Part shown: positions 13,753-47,501 of the stretch, in pieces | Numbering within the stretch: position 1 is the stretch's first letter | How the letters are laid out: every line of letters starts with the position of its first letter | Source of the DNA: Candidatus Arcticimaribacter sp. | GTDB lineage: Bacteria; Bacteroidota; Bacteroidia; Flavobacteriales; Flavobacteriaceae | Assembly: GCA_965662875.1 (NCBI GenBank) | Contig: CBFIJA010000002.1 | Coordinates: 5,921 to 69,920, forward strand | Length of the DNA: 64,000 nucleotides | Reading direction: 5' to 3' | Notes under the pieces: generated by a model | Told to the model about the DNA's origin: nothing | What the model saw: the letters and a program-made list of their open reading frames with translations, nothing else | Databases searched by the model: none | Position numbers and translations under genes: made by a program

Positions 13753-13860
13753 TTAAATAAGTTGCTTTGGGGAAGGATTTGATGATACATCTTGAAAGCA
13801 ACACTGCTTTAGCATTTTTTTTTCGAGGTTTGCAATCAGTCAAATCCTTCCTCGTTTGTG
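13753..13860 (-). promoter_or_regulatory. structured 5' leader of the metK operon (candidate SAM-responsive riboswitch, class unassigned)
   Basis: RNA GGAAGGAUUUGA (13782-13771) and UCAAAUCCUUCC can form a 12-bp helix. An inner hairpin is AAAGCA-GUGU-UGCUUU. GUUGCUUU can instead pair with AAAGCAAC just upstream of the AUG. Confidence 0.4.
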
Positions 13861-30067: not shown

Positions 30068-30149
30068 TGCGGGTGAAGGGACTCGAACCCCCACGCCGTG
30101 AAGCACTAGATCCTAAATCTAGCGTGTCTACCAATTTCACCACACCCGC
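30068..30149 (-). tRNA. tRNA-Leu (anticodon TAG)
   Basis: Hand-folded sequence GCGGGTG-TG-GTGAAATTGGTAGACAC-G-CTAGA-TTTAGGA-TCTAG-long variable arm-GGGGGTTCGAGTCCCTT-CACCCGC-A. The acceptor and anticodon stems pair perfectly. Confidence 0.9.
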
Positions 30150-34386: not shown

Positions 34387-34422
34387 TTTTTTTGCCTTTA
34401 AAGAAACCGCTTTTTCGTAACC

Positions 34423-34439
34423 TTCAATCAAACCACAAC
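34423..34439 (-). repeat. solitary CRISPR-repeat-like element (5' GTTGTGGTTTGATTGAA), complementary to the anti-repeat at 37934-37950
   Basis: Pairing with TTCAATCTTATCACAAT gives 13 Watson-Crick pairs, 2 G:U pairs and a 2-nt internal mismatch over 17 nt. It lies 68 nt downstream of the Cas9-like stop on the same strand. Only one copy was seen. The true 3' extent is unknown and could run to about 34404. Confidence 0.5.
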
Positions 34440-34506
34440 ACTATATTTATTTATGAAATCGTAATGGGTTAGGTAGTGTACAAAGCGAACAATGCACAAT
34501 GATGTT

Positions 34507-37500
34507 TTACGCGAAAAAACGGTTCTTTTCTAAAGCATAATCTGTTTTTTTTATTTGACCGATACAGTCTACCTCTACTTTGATGGGATTGTAATTAAAC
34601 CATCCTGTTTTTTTATCGCCAAAATTATTTATCCTTATGTAGTCCGGAAATTCTGTGCTATTGGATGTGGGTTTATAAGCCAATCGAAATTCATAGTATT
34701 TACTGGATAATTTTTGTACTCGGTATAAAATCTTCATCAAATAAGCGTTAGACTCTAAGGCTATGTTTTCCTCCAAACGATCTGCACCCATCAGAAATAA
34801 ATCGTTGGTTTTTAATACCGTAATCAAGGCGTTTTGTTCCGGTTGGGGCACCTCGACAATGGGTTTTCCTTTTGTCATTCTTTGAACTACTTCCCAAAAA
34901 CTGACTACATCTTCATGCAGCTGTCCAGCTATATCCTCATAAATCAATACATGGTGATTGTTTCTAGGGATAACAAATTGATTTTTATGGGCCTTTAATT
35001 TTACTTCCGTATTGAACGCTTCACGAATACGCACCTTTTTAATGGGAACAGGATCTCCCTTTGTGTTAGGCAAAAATAATTTGGGCTTCACCCTTCCTGC
35101 TTTATCTTTTTTGAAAAAAGTGTTTGGCGGGATTTGTTGTTTCCCGTCAAAGTTTTTTATGACCGCTTCTTGCACTAGTTTTTTAACTACTGGATCAACA
35201 ATTTTATCAACTTGATTGATTGATTTGATTTGATTTAAGGGTTTACGAATGTGAAGTGCAGTGACCTTGTTGGGGGAAGTTCGTTTTCCGTAAAAACTCT
35301 CTTTATGCAACATACCACGAACAGAGACATTGTTACTAAACACCTTGATGTCCTCTTTTTTAATCCATTTTTTTCGTGTTGAAAGGATTCTTTTTTGGCT
35401 TTTATAAGAGACTAAAATTTCGTTGAAATGCTTTGTGAAATCTTCAAAATAGTTGTTGTAAGGCCTAGGGAAACTCGTTTTATTTTGGGGCCATTTGTAT
35501 TTATTTCGCTGCTTCAAGCTTTCCAAATGCTCGGTTGTTTTAACTGCGTTGACAAAAGAACGCATAGCGCTCTGACGATAATCCAATGCTTTTGACTTTT
35601 CTTTGTATGAATTCAAAAGCAACCATTGCTCTATCAAATGCTGGGTGGTATTTCCCATAGAAATATTGACTTCTTGAAAAACAATGGACAACACACTTTC
35701 TAAACTTCTAGATATAATGTGCGGATCATTAAACTGTTGTTGTATGATATTGCGTTTGTTGTATTTTTTCACAAAACGCTGAAATTTTGTAAAACTTGCT
35801 GGATGCTGTCTAGTATTGGAGAATTGATACATCAACCGTTTTTTTATTTCCCCCCAATTTTCCATTTGAGTGTTCATAAAATATTCGTGTGGGGTTCTTC
35901 CCTCTAACTCTTCTGCGACTTCGGCAAAACAAAGAACTTTATTGAGGTGGCTGTCGTTCAAGGAAAACTCCCATGGATTGATGTATACAATTCTAATCTC
36001 TTGAGTAAAAAGGGAGGCAATTGGTATGGGTTTGTTTGTGAAAGGGCAAACTTTTTTACACTCTTCAAAGAGGTCGTATTTTAGGATATTCATAGGAGTG
36101 AGGTTCACACCTAATTTTTTGATGATATTGAAATATCGATCTCGGTTTCCTTTTATTCTTTTTTGATCAATTTTATAGATAAAGCGCTGCATCCGATTTA
36201 CTTTTAGGTCCACAGAAAGTTCACAATTGATACTGGATATTGATCCGTACTTTTTAAGCAAAGCATTCAAGACCTTTCGAAGTTCAAAAACACTTTGTAT
36301 TACAATGTTCTTATCTAATTTATGTATCAGTTTGTCCGTTTCTTTGGAAACCTCAAAATACTTTTCAAGGTTCTTATCCCTTTTTTTTGGGGGTATACCA
36401 TAAACTTTCTTGGATTTAAATTGCAATTCTGGACATGAAGCATCGAACCATGACTGAAGTTTTGAAAGTACTTCTTTGGTACTGTTTTCCTTTTTTATCT
36501 TCAATGCTGCAGTTGCAATTTCTGCTTTATTTTCTGCTGAAAGTGTCTCCCAATGGGGCGCAATAGCATTTTTTATACCGCCCAAAAAAACAGCGGTCTT
36601 GTATCGATACCCCTGACGTAAAAAAGGAAGTAAATTTCTACACGCCTTTTTACTCAACAAGGCATACGTTTTATCTAGACTAATTTTCGAAAACTGCTCT
36701 GCACAATATTCATCAAGACCAAACTTTTCTTCTGCATGTTGTTTTAACTTTTCAAGATCGTCAAAAAAATAAAGCGCATGAAAAACATCTTCTTTAAGTT
36801 TTGAATCCATGTTGAACCAATCGGTTCCAAAAAATTTATTTTTTGACATTTCATAGTCGATGAATATTCCTTTAAATATTTCATCATCTCTATAGTTGAA
36901 TGCCTTTTTATCTGGCAGTTGCAGTCTGTTTTTAAGATCTGAAAATTTAAATTTGTAGTTGGATCGTAAAAAAGCAAAAGTCACCCGTCTTTCTTCTTCT
37001 TCAAGGGGTTGGTTATTGTACTGTATTGAATTGATCCATTTCCAGGCTTCTACCTCTTGGCATTCAAAAGAAGATACACAAGCTCTTGTTTTATTTGGTT
37101 CAAGTGAACAATTGCCGACTTTGTGCTTTTGAGACTTTAAGCGCCTAAGAAAAAACACAGCCCCTTTTGGGGTTCTGTCATTTGGATTTCCGATCAGACG
37201 TTCCCTTAAACCCTCTTGGAAATGATAAAATCGAGATTGTATTTCCCATATTTTATGAATTTCATCAAAATACATTTGGGTAGAACAGATACGGTTTCGA
37301 ACCCGTTCCAACTGGTGTGTATAGCTCTTATTCTCTCTCGGCAATAGCTGAAATAAATACTCCCCTAAAGTGTTTTCTTTCACCGATCGTTGAGTTTGTT
37401 CGTAGCCAATTTTACCGTCTTCTTGACTTCCTTTATAGAGCACACTTCCTTTTAGTCTTGAATGGCGTTCGCCAAAACGATACCCCCTACGCTGTGTTAT

Positions 37501-37908
37501 TTGATAAAGTATTCGTCCCAATTCATTCAAGGAAAGCTTATCTGAAACGCCCTTTTTTCGAAGCGCATAGGGATTCATGGACAGCCATTGATCTAACTCA
37601 TCATGCGGAAAATGTTTTTTTTGTTTCCATTGTTTTAGACTTTCTAGAGCTACAGGACACATATTGTGCTGGGCTAAAATTCTAAGTAAATAATACTTCC
37701 TTGATCGAATCCTTGCATGACGGATTCTATGGAGTCGGTAATTTCGTTTACTCTTTTTTTTGGATTGTTCGCGCTTACCCCAACCGAAATTTTCACAGTC
37801 TGGATTGAACCGGTGCACTCCCATTCCCAAAATCTTCTTTCGATCGGTTTCATAAAGGGTCCAGCCGACAGCACTTGCATCCAAATAAATTCCTAGCTTT
37901 TTTGACAT
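34507..37908 (-). CDS. Cas9-like protein (type II-C-like architecture) with substituted HNH and RuvC-III catalytic residues
   Basis: 1133 aa. GIYLDASAVGW (RuvC-I), Arg-rich bridge helix RNYRLHRIRHARIRSRKYYLL, PYALRKK..LGRILYQITQRRGY, NCSLEPNKTRAC...AWKWIN, LSKKACRNLLPFLRQGYRY and INCELSVD (RuvC-II). The HNH-shaped segment is RIVYINPWEFSLNDSHLNKVL...GRTPHEYF. The RuvC-III-shaped segment is DYRQSAMRSFVNAV. Confidence 0.85.
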   Translation of the reverse strand: MSKKLGIYLDASAVGWTLYETDRKKILGMGVHRFNPDCENFGWGKREQSKKKSKRNYRLHRIRHARIRSRKYYLLRILAQHNMCPVALESLKQWKQKKHFPHDELDQWLSMNPYALRKKGVSDKLSLNELGRILYQITQRRGYRFGERHSRLKGSVLYKGSQEDGKIGYEQTQRSVKENTLGEYLFQLLPRENKSYTHQLERVRNRICSTQMYFDEIHKIWEIQSRFYHFQEGLRERLIGNPNDRTPKGAVFFLRRLKSQKHKVGNCSLEPNKTRACVSSFECQEVEAWKWINSIQYNNQPLEEEERRVTFAFLRSNYKFKFSDLKNRLQLPDKKAFNYRDDEIFKGIFIDYEMSKNKFFGTDWFNMDSKLKEDVFHALYFFDDLEKLKQHAEEKFGLDEYCAEQFSKISLDKTYALLSKKACRNLLPFLRQGYRYKTAVFLGGIKNAIAPHWETLSAENKAEIATAALKIKKENSTKEVLSKLQSWFDASCPELQFKSKKVYGIPPKKRDKNLEKYFEVSKETDKLIHKLDKNIVIQSVFELRKVLNALLKKYGSISSINCELSVDLKVNRMQRFIYKIDQKRIKGNRDRYFNIIKKLGVNLTPMNILKYDLFEECKKVCPFTNKPIPIASLFTQEIRIVYINPWEFSLNDSHLNKVLCFAEVAEELEGRTPHEYFMNTQMENWGEIKKRLMYQFSNTRQHPASFTKFQRFVKKYNKRNIIQQQFNDPHIISRSLESVLSIVFQEVNISMGNTTQHLIEQWLLLNSYKEKSKALDYRQSAMRSFVNAVKTTEHLESLKQRNKYKWPQNKTSFPRPYNNYFEDFTKHFNEILVSYKSQKRILSTRKKWIKKEDIKVFSNNVSVRGMLHKESFYGKRTSPNKVTALHIRKPLNQIKSINQVDKIVDPVVKKLVQEAVIKNFDGKQQIPPNTFFKKDKAGRVKPKLFLPNTKGDPVPIKKVRIREAFNTEVKLKAHKNQFVIPRNNHHVLIYEDIAGQLHEDVVSFWEVVQRMTKGKPIVEVPQPEQNALITVLKTNDLFLMGADRLEENIALESNAYLMKILYRVQKLSSKYYEFRLAYKPTSNSTEFPDYIRINNFGDKKTGWFNYNPIKVEVDCIGQIKKTDYALEKNRFFA

Positions 37909-37931
37909 TTGTATATTTTTTTATACATTTG
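37901..37931 (+). promoter_or_regulatory. Bacteroidetes-type promoter for the tracrRNA-like gene (TTTG-N19-TACATTTG)
   Basis: TTTG at 37901-37904, a 19-nt spacer, then an exact TAnnTTTG at 37924-37931. It overlaps the Cas9-like start codon on the opposite strand. Confidence 0.5.
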
Positions 37932-37933
37932 AA

Positions 37934-38004
37934 TTCAATCTTATCACAATAAGGCTTTATGCCGTAGATAAAATTCTTAAATCCCGCTTCGGTGGGATTT
38001 TTTT
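37934..38004 (+). ncRNA. tracrRNA-like small RNA (anti-repeat, nexus hairpin, UUCG-capped terminator)
   Basis: UUCAAUCUUAUCACAAU-AAGGCUUUAUGCCGU-AGAUAAAAUUCUU-AAAUCCCGC-UUCG-GUGGGAUUU-UUUU. The CACAAU-AAGGC..GCCGU module parallels the SpCas9 AAAAU-AAGGCUAGUCCGU nexus. The 5' end is inferred from the promoter only. Confidence 0.6.
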
Positions 38005-38413
38005 ATAAATTTTCATTGATTTTTCTCTCTTCCTCGCCCAGCATACCATAATGGTATTTTAATAACAAGGGGTAAAACCTCCATATTGAATTTCCTGTCA
38101 CTTCTTTGGCTTTGTGGAAGGCCAATTCGTTTTTTTCTAAAAAATCTAAAGTTTTACTTTTTACAGTCTCTTCCATATAATTTATGGGATCCAATAGACG
38201 TAATCTAAACCCTTTACGAACGGCTGTATACATATTTTGAGCGTCTAATTTTTGCAATAAAGAATGTTTCACTTTGTAAAATTTGGGAGAATTAACTTCT
38301 AATAACTTTTGCAATTGTTGTTCACTCATTCCTAAAGCATAGGAACGCAACATTAGAAACTCTTTTGTAGTTAATTTTTTTGAGTCATTTTGGGTCGGTA
38401 TATTTTTACTCAT
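38003..38413 (-). CDS. small LuxR/FixJ-type HTH protein
   Basis: 136 aa. LTTKEFLMLRSYALGMSEQQLQKLLEVNSPKFYKVKHSLLQKLDAQNMYTAVRKGF fits the LuxR C-terminal HTH pattern (LT.RE..vL.l.a.G.s..eia..L..s..TV..h...i..KL...n...av). No receiver domain. Confidence 0.65.
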   Translation of the reverse strand: MSKNIPTQNDSKKLTTKEFLMLRSYALGMSEQQLQKLLEVNSPKFYKVKHSLLQKLDAQNMYTAVRKGFRLRLLDPINYMEETVKSKTLDFLEKNELAFHKAKEVTGNSIWRFYPLLLKYHYGMLGEEERKINENL

Positions 38414-38608
38414 AAGTAGTGATATATATAGTGTTATAGCATCAAAAATGACACTCTTACCAAAACTTTCAATGCTACTTGTAAGGGCCGGTTGGTTTAA
38501 ATGGTTATCTGGTCAAATCGTGTTCTAGGTGGTTATAATTTTTTGTAAGCGTTGTTTCTTGTCGTATTTTGCATTTCGTTATCGTATTTTTTGGTGTATT
38601 TTAGCACC

Positions 38609-38812
38609 ATGGAACTTTTTCTAATCTCATTTGTTTTAATCGGTCTTGCTTTTGCGGGAATTGCCATCAAGATTTTGGTAAAGAAAGAAGGTAAGTTTGC
38701 AGGTACGTGTGCCAGTCAAAGCCCTTTTCTCAATAAGGACAATGAACCTTGTGGTTTCTGCGGAAAGCTCCCAGATGAACAGGAATGCCGAAATCCTGAA
38801 GTGATAAAATAA
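38609..38812 (+). CDS. small membrane protein with a Cys-rich tail (NqrM/DUF539-like?)
   Basis: 67 aa from MELFLISFVLIGLAFAGIAI. One TM helix, then GTCAS..x14..CGFCG..x8..C. The family assignment is tentative. Confidence 0.4.
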   Translation: MELFLISFVLIGLAFAGIAIKILVKKEGKFAGTCASQSPFLNKDNEPCGFCGKLPDEQECRNPEVIK

Positions 38813-38852
38813 AGCGGCATTCCACAAAAAAATCTCTATCTTCGGTTTAGGT

Positions 38853-39416
38853 ATGGAGGATAAAGCCATTGCGAACGCCATTTTACTTGCCAAAAAAAAC
38901 AATCAAAAAGCTTTTGCTCTGCTTTATGATGCCTATTGGGAGTATTTGTTTTCTTATTTGCTCAAAAAAAATATCCCTGAAGATCTAGCAGAAGACCTTG
39001 CCATTAAAACCTTTTCTAAAGCATTTGATAAAATAGCGACTTACGACGCTAAGTATACATTCAAAACTTGGCTCGTTACCATTTCCAAAAATCTTCACAT
39101 TGACCAACACCGAAAAGACAAAAAGCAAATTCAATCTAGAAATGAATCGCTAGAAATCAGTCAAATTCACAATGTGATGGATGAAAACCCTTCGCCAGAA
39201 GATTTGTTGATTACAACGCAAAACCTCAAAGGTTTACTAAAACAAATAAAAGGATTAAAACCGGTATACAGCAAGGTAATCAAGCTTCGCTATCTACAAC
39301 AGTTAAGCTATAAAGAAATAAGTGATGAGATGAATTTACCGCTCAACACAGTGAAAGTAACACTTCTAAGGGCCAAAAAAATATTGGCTGAAAAAATCAT
39401 CAATGAAAAAATTTAA
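38853..39416 (+). CDS. ECF-type RNA polymerase sigma-70 family factor
   Basis: 187 aa. Region 2 (DLAEDLAIKTF...FKTWLVTISKNLHIDQHRK) and region 4 (KLRYLQQLSYKEISDEMNLPLNTVKVTLLRAKK). Confidence 0.85.
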   Translation: MEDKAIANAILLAKKNNQKAFALLYDAYWEYLFSYLLKKNIPEDLAEDLAIKTFSKAFDKIATYDAKYTFKTWLVTISKNLHIDQHRKDKKQIQSRNESLEISQIHNVMDENPSPEDLLITTQNLKGLLKQIKGLKPVYSKVIKLRYLQQLSYKEISDEMNLPLNTVKVTLLRAKKILAEKIINEKI

Positions 39417-40614
39417 TCTTCAAAAACTGGGTCCAGGCTTACTCTTTGCTGGTGCGGCCATTGGGGTTTCGCATTTGGTACAATCAACACGGGCTGGAGC
39501 TGATTTTGGCTGGGGTTTGTTGTGGGCTTTAGTGTTGTCCAACCTTTTCAAGTATCCCTTTTTTCAATTTGGCCCACGGTTTGCCTTGGCGACAAATAAA
39601 AATTTACTGGAAGGGTATTTTCACCTCGGAAAGCATTATCTGTGGCTCTATTTTTTTCTAAACATGGCTACAATGTTTACCATTCAAACTGCGGTAACCA
39701 TTGTTACTGCAGGACTTGCCTCTTCCATTTTTGGAATAACGGCTGACTTGGTTGCATGGAGTGCATTAATTACCGCTCTTTGCCTAATTCTTTTACTTCT
39801 TGGGAAATATAAACTCTTGGACAAGGCCATAAAAGCCATTATTTTACTTTTGACCCTATGCACCCTAATCGCTGTAGTTTGGGCAGGACACAAAAACACA
39901 TCCCCTTTAGAATTTTCACAAATAATTCCTCACGGAAACGAACTTCTTTTTTTAATTGCATTTATGGGATGGATGCCTGCTCCTCTGGACATTTCCATAT
40001 GGCAATCTTTATGGGCTTTGGAAAAGAAAAAAACGGAAAAGCTCAGCTATAAAGAGGCTTTATTTGACTTTAATGTTGGCTATATCGTTACGGTAGTACT
40101 TGGAGTTTGTTTTGTTGGACTGGGTGCTTTTGTCATGTATGGATCGGGGACTCGTTTTTCTAACTCAGGAGGAGAATTTGCCAATCAGTTGGTTGCATTG
40201 TATACCCAAACACTTGGCGAAGAACTTTATGTTTTTATTGCCATCGCTGCCTTTACAACCATGTTTAGTACGACTTTGACAACGCTGGACGCCTCTCCCA
40301 GAGCAATGGAGAAAACCATGAATTTACTATTGCCAAAAATTAATTTTTTCACTTATCGCTTTTGGATTTTAGTTTTGGCCAGCGGAACCCTCTTTATTTT
40401 TGCTTTTTTAGCATCAGAAATGGGGAGATTAGTAGCTATAGCTACAACCTTGTCTTTTATCACTGCACCCTTGTATGCTTTTTTAAATTTCCGCTTGGTA
40501 ACAGGAGATCAAATGCCCCTAGATGCACGTCCTAAAAAAGGCTTATTGGTTTTAAGCTTAGTAGGTTTACTCTTTTTAAGCGGCTTTGCGATTGGCTTTC
40601 TCTTCACCCTATAA
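39403..40614 (+). CDS. polytopic membrane transporter, NRAMP-like divalent cation transporter family (tentative)
   Basis: 403 aa with about 11 TM segments. The N-terminal [25 protein letters not shown] resembles short Bacteroidetes Nramp-family proteins. Overlaps the sigma gene by 14 nt. Confidence 0.55.
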
Positions 40615-47426: not shown

Positions 47427-47501
47427 TGGGCGCTGAGGGATTCGAACCCCCGACCCCCTCGGTGTAAACGAGGTGCTCTGAACCAACTGAGCTAAGCGCC
47501 C
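47427..47501 (-). tRNA. tRNA-Val (anticodon TAC)
   Basis: Hand-folded sequence GGGCGCT-TA-GCTCAGTTGGTTCAGAGC-A-CCTCG-TTTACAC-CGAGG-GGGTC-GGGGGTTCGAATCCCTC-AGCGCCC-A. Confidence 0.9.

Follow-up and report, generated by a model that had tools for sequence, protein, structure and literature searches.

Engineered catalytically dead Cas9, the D10A/H840A form used for CRISPR interference (CRISPRi), is the basis of CRISPRi and CRISPR activation (CRISPRa), base editing and imaging, and to our knowledge evolution was not known to have produced a natural counterpart. We know of natural nuclease-dead RNA-guided regulators shown only in the TnpB/Cas12 lineage, namely TldR, a group of repressors that resemble TnpB but are nuclease-dead, and dCas12f-sigmaE, and of Cas9-based regulation only by catalytically active enzymes that use short guides. 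The targets and mechanisms of TldR and dCas12f-sigmaE have been shown experimentally (PMC10705468; PMC13472631). Among Cas9 systems, the complex of Cas9, trans-activating CRISPR RNA (tracrRNA) and scaRNA represses endogenous genes in Francisella novicida, and the tracr-L of Streptococcus pyogenes autoregulates (Ratner 2019, Workman 2021, cited in PMC13472631). The sole inactivated Cas9 on record in the literature searched is the type II-C2 phage variant, which has a dead RuvC and an active HNH domain, is linked to SNF2 and has been proposed to act as an anti-CRISPR decoy (Altae-Tran 2023, PMC10910872; Makarova 2025, PMC12669027). Here we describe, on a stretch of 64,000 nucleotides from Candidatus Arcticimaribacter sp. 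(contig CBFIJA010000002.1; the whole stretch is referred to as the window), a natural Cas9 homologue, hereafter dCas9, with catalytic residues replaced in both nuclease domains. No chromosomal family of doubly dead Cas9 proteins turned up in the literature searched, which took in the dCas12f-sigmaE paper, the 2023 terascale survey and the 2025 CRISPR-Cas classification; this does not prove that none has been described. We put at roughly 0.6 the probability that dCas9 is a vertically inherited, nuclease-dead derivative of Flavobacteriia type II-C systems, in which cas1 and cas2 are gone and a single spacer-repeat unit is left, and that it acts as a guided binder without cleavage, in the manner of CRISPRi.

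The dCas9 gene (34507..37908, minus strand) is an intact open reading frame (ORF) of 1133 aa that encodes a type II-C Cas9 homologue. TIGR01865, the NCBIfam Cas9 equivalog model, matches it over its full length (residues 5-1117; 347 bits, where the cutoff is 100; E=2.4e-103) and Pfam HNH_4 is also matched; RuvC_III and the Cas9 alpha-helical lobe score under their cutoffs. Significant matches in a phmmer search of the PDB are all Cas9 proteins, with GeoCas9 and ThermoCas9 at the top. The original observation of a Cas9-like protein with substituted catalytic residues is confirmed. An AlphaFold2 model, for which 54 homologues served as input, has a predicted local distance difference test (pLDDT) score of 84 and a predicted template-modelling (pTM) score of 0.71, and superposes at full length on SaCas9, Nme1Cas9, GeoCas9, ThermoCas9 and CbCas9 with Foldseek template-modelling (TM) scores of 0.58-0.67. 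The predicted fold is the bilobed one of Cas9, in which RuvC is split by the bridge helix and recognition (REC) lobe and by HNH, followed by C-terminal wedge (WED) and protospacer adjacent motif (PAM)-interacting (PI) domains; conservation extends over the RNA-binding bridge helix, REC and WED/PI, and includes the HNH scaffold.

By sequence and fold, therefore, the 1133-aa protein is a Cas9, but one that lacks the nuclease residues, the array and the adaptation genes of its relatives. Catalytic columns were read from an alignment of 54 homologues, among which are 17 active sisters and 7 Cas9s that are more distant, and a second time from the phmmer alignment to GeoCas9. The RuvC-I strand is LGLDLGTNSIGW in active relatives and LGIYLDASAVGW in dCas9; the canonical Asp is plainly Tyr8, and Asp10, which had left this site ambiguous in the by-eye reading, falls on the canonical Gly of D-x-G. 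The HNH His motif, Q-I-E-H-I-H-P-W in active relatives, is R-I-V-Y-I-N-P-W in dCas9, Val641-Tyr642 replacing D/E-H, and the HNH Asn lies in a segment (CFADENRKKG in active relatives, CFAEVAEELEG in dCas9) where the aligned column holds Ala665. In RuvC-III, DHRHHAIDALV has become DYRQSAMRSFV, with Ser780 for His and Arg783 for Asp (D776-Y-R-Q779-S780-A-M-R783 against canonical DHRHHAxDA). The loss of these HNH and RuvC-III residues had been claimed and is seen in the alignment; the residue numbers given were all right and the nucleotide ranges slightly off, RIVYINPWEF being encoded at 35965-35994, not 35971-36000, and QSAMRSFVNAV at 35542-35574. Of the residues that Cas9 requires, the RuvC D/H/D and the HNH D/E-H and N are thus replaced, and the RuvC-II Glu of active relatives is alone retained, as Glu563. 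A rescue of RuvC by the shifted Asp10 was considered and rejected, since the RuvC-III His and Asp are lost too. Replacement of these residues throughout the clade implies that nuclease activity has been lost, and the public annotation of dCas9 proteins as 'type II CRISPR RNA-guided endonuclease Cas9' is probably wrong as to activity.

The substitutions are not peculiar to the window. Protein clusters P0001-P0029, 41-100% identical to dCas9 and 1122-1141 aa long, share them and have no Pfam RuvC_III match, and the more divergent P0037 carries the same dead sites; a sister tier (P0030-P0048; 35-40% identical) keeps every canonical residue (D / E / (E/D)H / N / HH..D). HNH and RuvC-III are likewise dead in 14/14 genomic copies taken from loci, and the sharing of the substitutions across 30 clusters and these 14 copies far exceeds chance. 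Because RuvC-I and RuvC-II vary within the dead clade (locus L007 keeps the RuvC-I Asp and has Glu-to-Gln in RuvC-II) while HNH and RuvC-III are dead in all 14, the alignments suggest that the latter two were inactivated first and that the remaining sites drifted later. A scan of genome contigs with a protein pattern from a single dCas9 protein gave no match.

Selection on the protein was assessed by Nei-Gojobori comparisons restricted to intact dCas9 genes. The proportion of synonymous differences (pS) is saturated in every intact pair, at ~0.75, and the nonsynonymous proportion (pN) ranges from 0.11 to 0.37, the lowest value belonging to the closest intact pair, which has 81% amino-acid identity. 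As dS is saturated in every pair, no numeric dN/dS can be given, and the statement that omega is well under ~0.15 in the closest pair is an upper bound rather than an exact value; the combination of saturated pS with a pN of 0.11 nonetheless means that purifying selection on dCas9 is strong. With orthologues reaching down to 35-40% identity over their full length, the claim of a maintained protein, as opposed to a pseudogene, holds. Bridge-helix arginines are invariant in dead and active sequences alike. When mean pairwise identity is taken domain by domain, the dead clade reaches 0.70-0.91 of the active-clade value; the ratio is highest in WED/PI (0.91) and next in HNH (0.85), two scaffolds as constrained as those of active relatives, and HNH is the best-conserved dCas9 domain in absolute identity (0.60). 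Such conservation would be expected of a protein that has kept its binding to guide RNA, PAM and DNA.

The original prediction regarded the protein as an orphan, which it is not: a tracrRNA (~37933-38004, plus strand) and a solitary spacer with a repeat remnant (34421-34473, minus strand) flank the gene. The tracrRNA, placed at 37933..38004 with an inferred 5' end, runs antisense to dCas9 immediately upstream of its ATG and comprises an anti-repeat at ~37934-37950 (TTCAATCTTATCACAAT), a nexus hairpin (37953-37963), stem-loop 2 (37966-37977) and a terminator hairpin (37979-38000) with a U-tract, a terminator being detected at its 3' end. Its candidate promoter (37901..37931, plus strand) is of Bacteroidetes type, TTTG-N19-TACATTTG, reads also as a sigma70-like TTGACA-16-TACATT, and is the top promoter-like match of the region; the -33 element falls within dCas9 codons 2-3. 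The exact composite motif occurs in the window, L044, L053 and L058, and near-matches lie at the same position in other loci. This RNA is homologous to the active-sister tracrRNA, found by gapped BLAST upstream of the sister cas9. The 22-nt tracrRNA core was found in 17 loci, of which 15 have it in identical form and L029 has one mismatch. Three predicted pairs of the consensus structure have changed on both sides with pairing kept, and the CRISPR RNA (crRNA) and tracrRNA cofold at -35.5 kcal/mol in a predicted duplex that is interrupted, as expected. Because a change from A to G at repeat position 15 between the active and the dead clade is compensated by T to C in the anti-repeat, the crRNA:tracrRNA duplex must itself have been under selection; dCas9 has the cognate tracrRNA with anti-repeat that a Cas9 should have. 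An ungapped, G:U-tolerant scan for anti-repeats found only the opposite strand of the repeat itself. The anti-repeat-like CAACCAAACCACAAC of an active sister locus (L004 13415-13429) was rejected as a tracrRNA, its topology being wrong and dead loci lacking it; it lies on the cas9 strand, 24 nt ahead of the first repeat of the L004 array, with which it could pair.

Right after the dCas9 stop codon (34473-34421, minus strand), a spacer-like segment, CCTAACCCATTACGATTTCATAAATAAATATAGT, runs directly into the 5' half of a CRISPR repeat, GTTGTGGTTTGATTGAAGG. The fixed spacer of this solitary crRNA (34440..34473) is predicted to be unstructured; the repeat remnant (34421..34439) is 19 nt long, corresponds to the 5' half of the 36-nt repeat of the sisters and is the portion that pairs with the tracrRNA anti-repeat. 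The tail beyond it (34387..34420, minus strand) is not conserved, holds a weak hairpin and a U-rich stretch that may serve as the crRNA terminator, and overlaps the 3' end of a convergent DUF456 gene. A block of 44 nt, spanning the 3' part of the spacer and the 5' part of the repeat, is invariant in the four loci first compared, the proteins of which are just 40-50% identical. Searching one genome for each GTDB species for an exact 26-nt match placed the block in 54 stretches, all from metagenome-assembled genomes (MAGs) of marine Flavobacteriaceae, including Candidatus Arcticimaribacter, and at an identical syntenic position throughout; the query took in part of the spacer, so that only loci with the block intact could be found. 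The seed is the same, however, in 7/7 loci retrieved through their protein instead of the block (the window, L001-L003, L063 with P0026, L065 with P0037 and L066 with P0028).

Conservation of the spacer is graded. The 12-14 nt proximal to the repeat, and thus to the PAM, (TA)AATAAATATAGT, never change in the family, the next 6-10 nt rarely vary, and the distal (5') half exists in six subclade variants; past repeat position 17-19, where anti-repeat pairing ends, the sequence varies freely. Because spacer invariance persists where neutral sites are saturated, this gradient is strong sequence evidence for a seed-constrained guide to an equally conserved site. There is no multi-unit array, only one spacer with a half-repeat, although the unit is present twice in tandem in a few genomes. 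In some genomes of Arcticimaribacter type, the upstream segment, spacer, half-repeat and tail are duplicated in tandem with a period of 185-237 nt and the same spacer in both copies (L023 107-317; L039 7514-7724; L046 4834-5096; L061 ~820-1000), one copy in L061 having a repeat that begins ATTGTGG. Between the dCas9 stop and the spacer lies a short hairpin (34477-34498, minus strand; at the equivalent spot in most loci), the sequence of which differs by subclade with pairing kept by eye; it might help to process or stabilise a crRNA derived from the 3' untranslated region (3'UTR). A recurrent TAATTTTG ~180 nt upstream was considered as a crRNA promoter and set aside, as by our reading it probably represents codons of a conserved NNFG motif.

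Cas9 identity and fold, catalytic loss throughout the clade, purifying selection and two conserved, co-varying RNAs coincide at one locus. For the steps that would join them, we infer RNA loading, DNA binding, a regulatory outcome, and the identity and location of a target. The shortened anti-repeat of the antisense tracrRNA would pair with the 19-nt remnant of the repeat in the single crRNA, which itself is probably processed from the dCas9 3'UTR, and dCas9 would load the resulting duplex. The invariant spacer (seed AATAAATATAGT, up to ~20-30 nt) would then direct a PAM-dependent R-loop to one conserved, AT-rich genomic site, where the bound complex, incapable of cleavage, would block transcription in a CRISPRi-like fashion, or another DNA transaction. 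In such a scheme dCas9 would bind DNA and is probably a repressor. Extending this, we see about an even chance that with this locus the Cas9 lineage has its first counterpart of TldR and dCas12f: a natural dCas9 with its own tracrRNA and one hard-wired crRNA, acting in a large clade of abundant marine Flavobacteriaceae as an RNA-guided transcription factor for one ultra-conserved chromosomal site, maybe together with the helix-turn-helix (HTH) or extracytoplasmic function (ECF) sigma proteins encoded nearby, and with a guide locus that seems to outlive the protein in many lineages.

Directly upstream of the tracrRNA and dCas9, and on the dCas9 strand, lies a lineage-restricted gene (38003..38413, minus strand) for a 136-aa HTH protein that has no Pfam or NCBIfam match, is conserved in most dCas9-bearing loci and has no homology to the ORF that precedes cas9 in the active sister. 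The N-terminal 60 residues, which are modelled with confidence, are predicted to form a LuxR/GerE HTH (TM ~0.8 to the DNA-binding domains of LiaR, GerE and VraR). A single hairpin (38003-38005 / 37979-38004) doubles as a bidirectional terminator, for the HTH gene on the minus strand and the tracrRNA on the plus strand, and HTH orthologues read through it, their conserved C-terminal KIPPKRD being antisense to the tracrRNA terminator. Divergently oriented neighbours (38552..40614, plus strand) encode a small Cys-rich membrane protein (Cys86), an ECF sigma factor (38853-39416) and an Nramp transporter; these are conserved, and are kept unchanged where dCas9 is deleted, and so are context rather than proven parts of the system. 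The order in the dead clade is LpxK, radical-SAM, Nramp, ECF sigma, Cys-rich ORF, HTH, tracrRNA, dCas9 and crRNA, then DUF456, a gene without assigned function, RuvC and HemN, and as all dead-clade loci share this one chromosomal neighbourhood, the system is vertically inherited and not carried on a mobile element. Searches of the 64-kb window with tblastn (sister Cas1, Cas2 and Cas9 as queries), TRF, a repeat finder and Rfam found no cas1, cas2 or array, as the original prediction had stated, and no second cas9, and the type II-C adaptation set (cas1 and cas2 without csn2/cas4) is likewise missing within +/-10 kb in L001-L003. Elsewhere the window contains a SAM-II riboswitch (13799-13859, minus strand; Rfam RF01726, 75.6 bits) and tRNA genes at 30068-30149 and 47427-47501.

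Several observations weigh against a guided regulator. Neighbours were mapped on all loci, and in the 31 GTDB loci with the upstream region wholly visible dCas9 is intact in only 9; it contains an in-frame TAA in 2 (L017, L053), is frameshifted in 3 (L032, L044, L046), and is deleted entirely or reduced to a C-terminal stub in 17. The gene is thus deleted or disrupted in 22/31 loci, with the crRNA block kept in every one, and the tracrRNA is lost in 16/17 deleted loci, the exception being L028 (5129-5340), which retains both RNAs without a dCas9 ORF. The function of dCas9 is therefore dispensable in many lineages, and the constraint on the block may be unrelated to it. Nor does the crRNA have a conserved promoter, there being no conserved TTTG-N-TAnnTTTG within 200 nt. 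Finally, no protospacer beyond chance emerged from the window, related loci, IMG/VR or JGI contigs, a search that did not extend to whole genomes. A seed-anchored scan of the window and L001-L003 gave no target, and in 539 kb of oriented related loci, where <=1 mismatch was allowed within the 12-nt seed, no site was recurrent or syntenic. Two 19-nt matches to the spacer in IMG/VR lie in unrelated AT-rich intergenic DNA, at chance level, and of the two matches in JGI metagenome contigs, L061 is another crRNA gene with a mutated repeat, and L062 is a eukaryote-like contig encoding BTB/TLDc-type proteins. The original prediction is supported in part. Orthologues share the substitutions and evolve under purifying selection, but the frame is not intact in most related block-bearing species; and the proposal of a domesticated protein that binds and does not cut, strongly supported by the conserved tracrRNA and fixed crRNA, is tempered by frequent gene loss as regards indispensability.

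The pattern of loss deserves scrutiny in its own right. As their junctions differ, the 17 deletions are independent events. In L015 (3178-3290), a stretch of ~4 kb that begins ~15 nt upstream of the start of Cys86 and ends shortly after the dCas9 stop is missing, with the block intact; in L057 (415-1010), which carries the exact spacer variant of the window between flanking genes that are just 68-75% identical, the N-terminus of the HTH protein is fused in frame to the C-terminus of dCas9. Such in-frame HTH/dCas9 fusions make up some of the deletion remnants, which include these two regions and L011 2746-3765. The MAG CAJWGK01 has two copies of the DUF456-RuvC side with the block (L035 and L041, on contigs 58 and 1), one with just a dCas9 stub, which suggests either presence/absence polymorphism between strains or a mixed bin. 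The tally of deletions is biased by ascertainment, as the scan required an intact block, and some of the frameshifts may be errors of MAG assembly. The deletions may reflect recurrent recent loss, since only intact blocks could be found, the frames of the stubs remain open and two versions of the locus occur in one MAG, or else the block may have a role independent of dCas9. That both readings fit is the main limit on our confidence in a guided dCas9.

An independent role would make the spacer-repeat block a small RNA or a cis element, such as a promoter or terminator that lies between DUF456 and the Cys86-sigma-Nramp operon, with dCas9 and the tracrRNA as accessories or passengers, and we regard it as unlikely. 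It would explain how the block comes to be the sole sequence shared at 93-100% identity among the 17 loci without dCas9, amid adjacent sequence of ~70-80% identity, and how the L015 deletion, which took the native upstream region of the Cys86-sigma-Nramp operon, left the block ~85 nt from the operon start and co-directional with DUF456; by our own reading, the reverse complement of the spacer also contains near-matches to the Bacteroidetes -7 box (TATATTTA). Yet the 3' part of the block is unmistakably the 5' half of the sister repeat and co-varies with the anti-repeat, and conservation ends exactly where anti-repeat pairing ends. The persistence of the block after loss cannot be quantified from a scan that found intact-block loci only, the open dCas9 stubs suggest that deletions are recent, and the two versions of the locus in one MAG (L035, L041) are consistent with segregating presence and absence. 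Another explanation would make dCas9 a slowly decaying relic of a type II-C system that, having lost nuclease and adaptation, has no present function. The absence of cas1, cas2 and the array, disruption or deletion in 22 of the 31 fully assessable species loci, and RuvC-I and RuvC-II residues still drifting within the clade all fit decay, but a functionless, AT-rich ORF of 3.4 kb would not stay open to 35-50% identity with synonymous sites saturated and pN/pS of ~0.15-0.5, nor would the two RNAs be expected to remain invariant with compensatory changes, or the domains to be conserved as in active Cas9s; this explanation is thus very improbable.

Two further proposals would retain a guided function of another kind. 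RNA-guided activation, whereby dCas9 with the ECF sigma factor and/or the LuxR-type HTH protein would recruit RNA polymerase to the guide site after the fashion of dCas12f-sigmaE, draws on the presence of the sigma gene, with no obvious anti-sigma partner, beside dCas9 in all loci examined and of the HTH gene in most, and on the rpoE and hth genes likewise held by Bacteroidetes dCas12f-sigmaE loci (PMC13472631). The sigma gene is, however, divergent and lies ~1 kb away in the Nramp operon, rather than in an operon with dCas9; it is unchanged in every dCas9-deleted locus, and in a neighbourhood of conserved housekeeping synteny (LpxK, NIF3, RuvC, HemN) its adjacency may be mere inheritance. As there is also no guide match upstream of any nearby operon, we think activation distinctly unlikely. 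Least likely of all the explanations considered here is immunity without cleavage, in which dCas9 would silence a mobile element by binding, or serve as a decoy that sequesters the crRNA or tracrRNA of another Cas9 as phage II-C2 might. Precedents exist, in that Cas12m and Cas12c interfere by binding alone (cited in PMC13472631) and a RuvC-inactivated Cas9 that is no longer associated with arrays is described as a putative anti-CRISPR (PMC10910872, PMC12669027). One spacer fixed across >55 species despite saturated neutral divergence is nevertheless unlike immune memory; the IMG/VR matches are two, at chance level and in unrelated contexts, the locus is chromosomal and syntenic rather than phage-borne, and there is no second Cas9 within the window.

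If dCas9 is indeed a guided binder, then the Cas9 lineage has been exapted too, as TnpB/Cas12 has, and a compact II-C scaffold has been tuned by selection to bind without cutting. A testable question would follow, as to what is regulated at a site of 12-30 nt that is so conserved in marine Flavobacteriaceae, and the independent deletions of dCas9 would form a natural series for studying the loss of such systems.

Among the closest known systems are the active sister II-C loci (P0030-P0048; L004 of Flavobacterium sp. UBA6135, and L067), in which an antisense tracrRNA lies upstream of cas9, followed by the array, cas2 and cas1. They resemble dCas9 in sequence (35-40% identity), in approximate length and domain order, in the position, strand and sequence family of the tracrRNA, and in the repeat family GTTGTGGTTTGATT..., but differ in having all catalytic residues, cas1 and cas2, and arrays of 35-88 repeats, the 36-nt repeat (GTTGTGGTTTGATTAAAGATTAG...) numbering ~88 units in L004 and ~35 in L067. 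The dCas9 system has, by contrast, one fixed spacer, a shortened repeat and anti-repeat, and no adaptation module. Each sister locus has features of its own: in L004 (9750-9800, 19470-19631), a GC-rich motif of 15 nt, CGACCTGTCCGTACA, flanks the CRISPR locus on both sides, as copies and as a tandem array of 7 units, and in L067 (11425-12074) a HigB-toxin/HTH antitoxin pair sits between cas9 and the array.

With scaRNA and tracr-L, dCas9 shares a stand-alone, non-array crRNA-like RNA that, at the level of sequence, would pair with the tracrRNA, and its crRNA is scaRNA-like in design. The Cas9 proteins of those systems are catalytically active, however, avoid cutting by limited complementarity and coexist with a working array and adaptation genes, whereas dCas9 has lost cutting at the level of the protein and no longer has the immune function; nor does its guide match a host promoter or 5'UTR in the window, related loci or collections scanned, whole genomes not being among them. 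TldR and dCas12f-sigmaE are likewise nuclease-dead descendants of RNA-guided nucleases, chromosomal and with a dedicated, fixed guide, and dCas12f-sigmaE in addition occurs in Bacteroidetes, close to sigma and HTH genes. The dCas9 of the window matches them as a nuclease-dead, RNA-guided protein under selection with a fixed guide, but not in ancestry, as they belong to the TnpB/Cas12 lineage, with a single RuvC and a single chimeric guide where the guide of dCas9 is a dual RNA; coupling to sigma-E amounts here to an ECF sigma gene that is a conserved neighbour, divergent, in another operon and kept where dCas9 is deleted. Phage II-C2 is, like dCas9, a II-C Cas9 with an inactivated nuclease domain, no array and a tracrRNA nearby, from which dCas9 differs in having both domains dead, a chromosomal location, its own fixed crRNA, vertical inheritance and no SNF2, and it does not belong to that group. 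Engineered dCas9 shares with the natural protein two inactive nuclease sites, a retained guide- and DNA-binding scaffold and the same presumed action; the natural one has evolved, is changed at more sites (RuvC-I, RuvC-III, and the HNH His and Asn), is of II-C size and has a single hard-wired guide. As it lacks the nuclease residues, array and adaptation genes of type II-C, we class dCas9 as a new derived variant of that type rather than as a full member.

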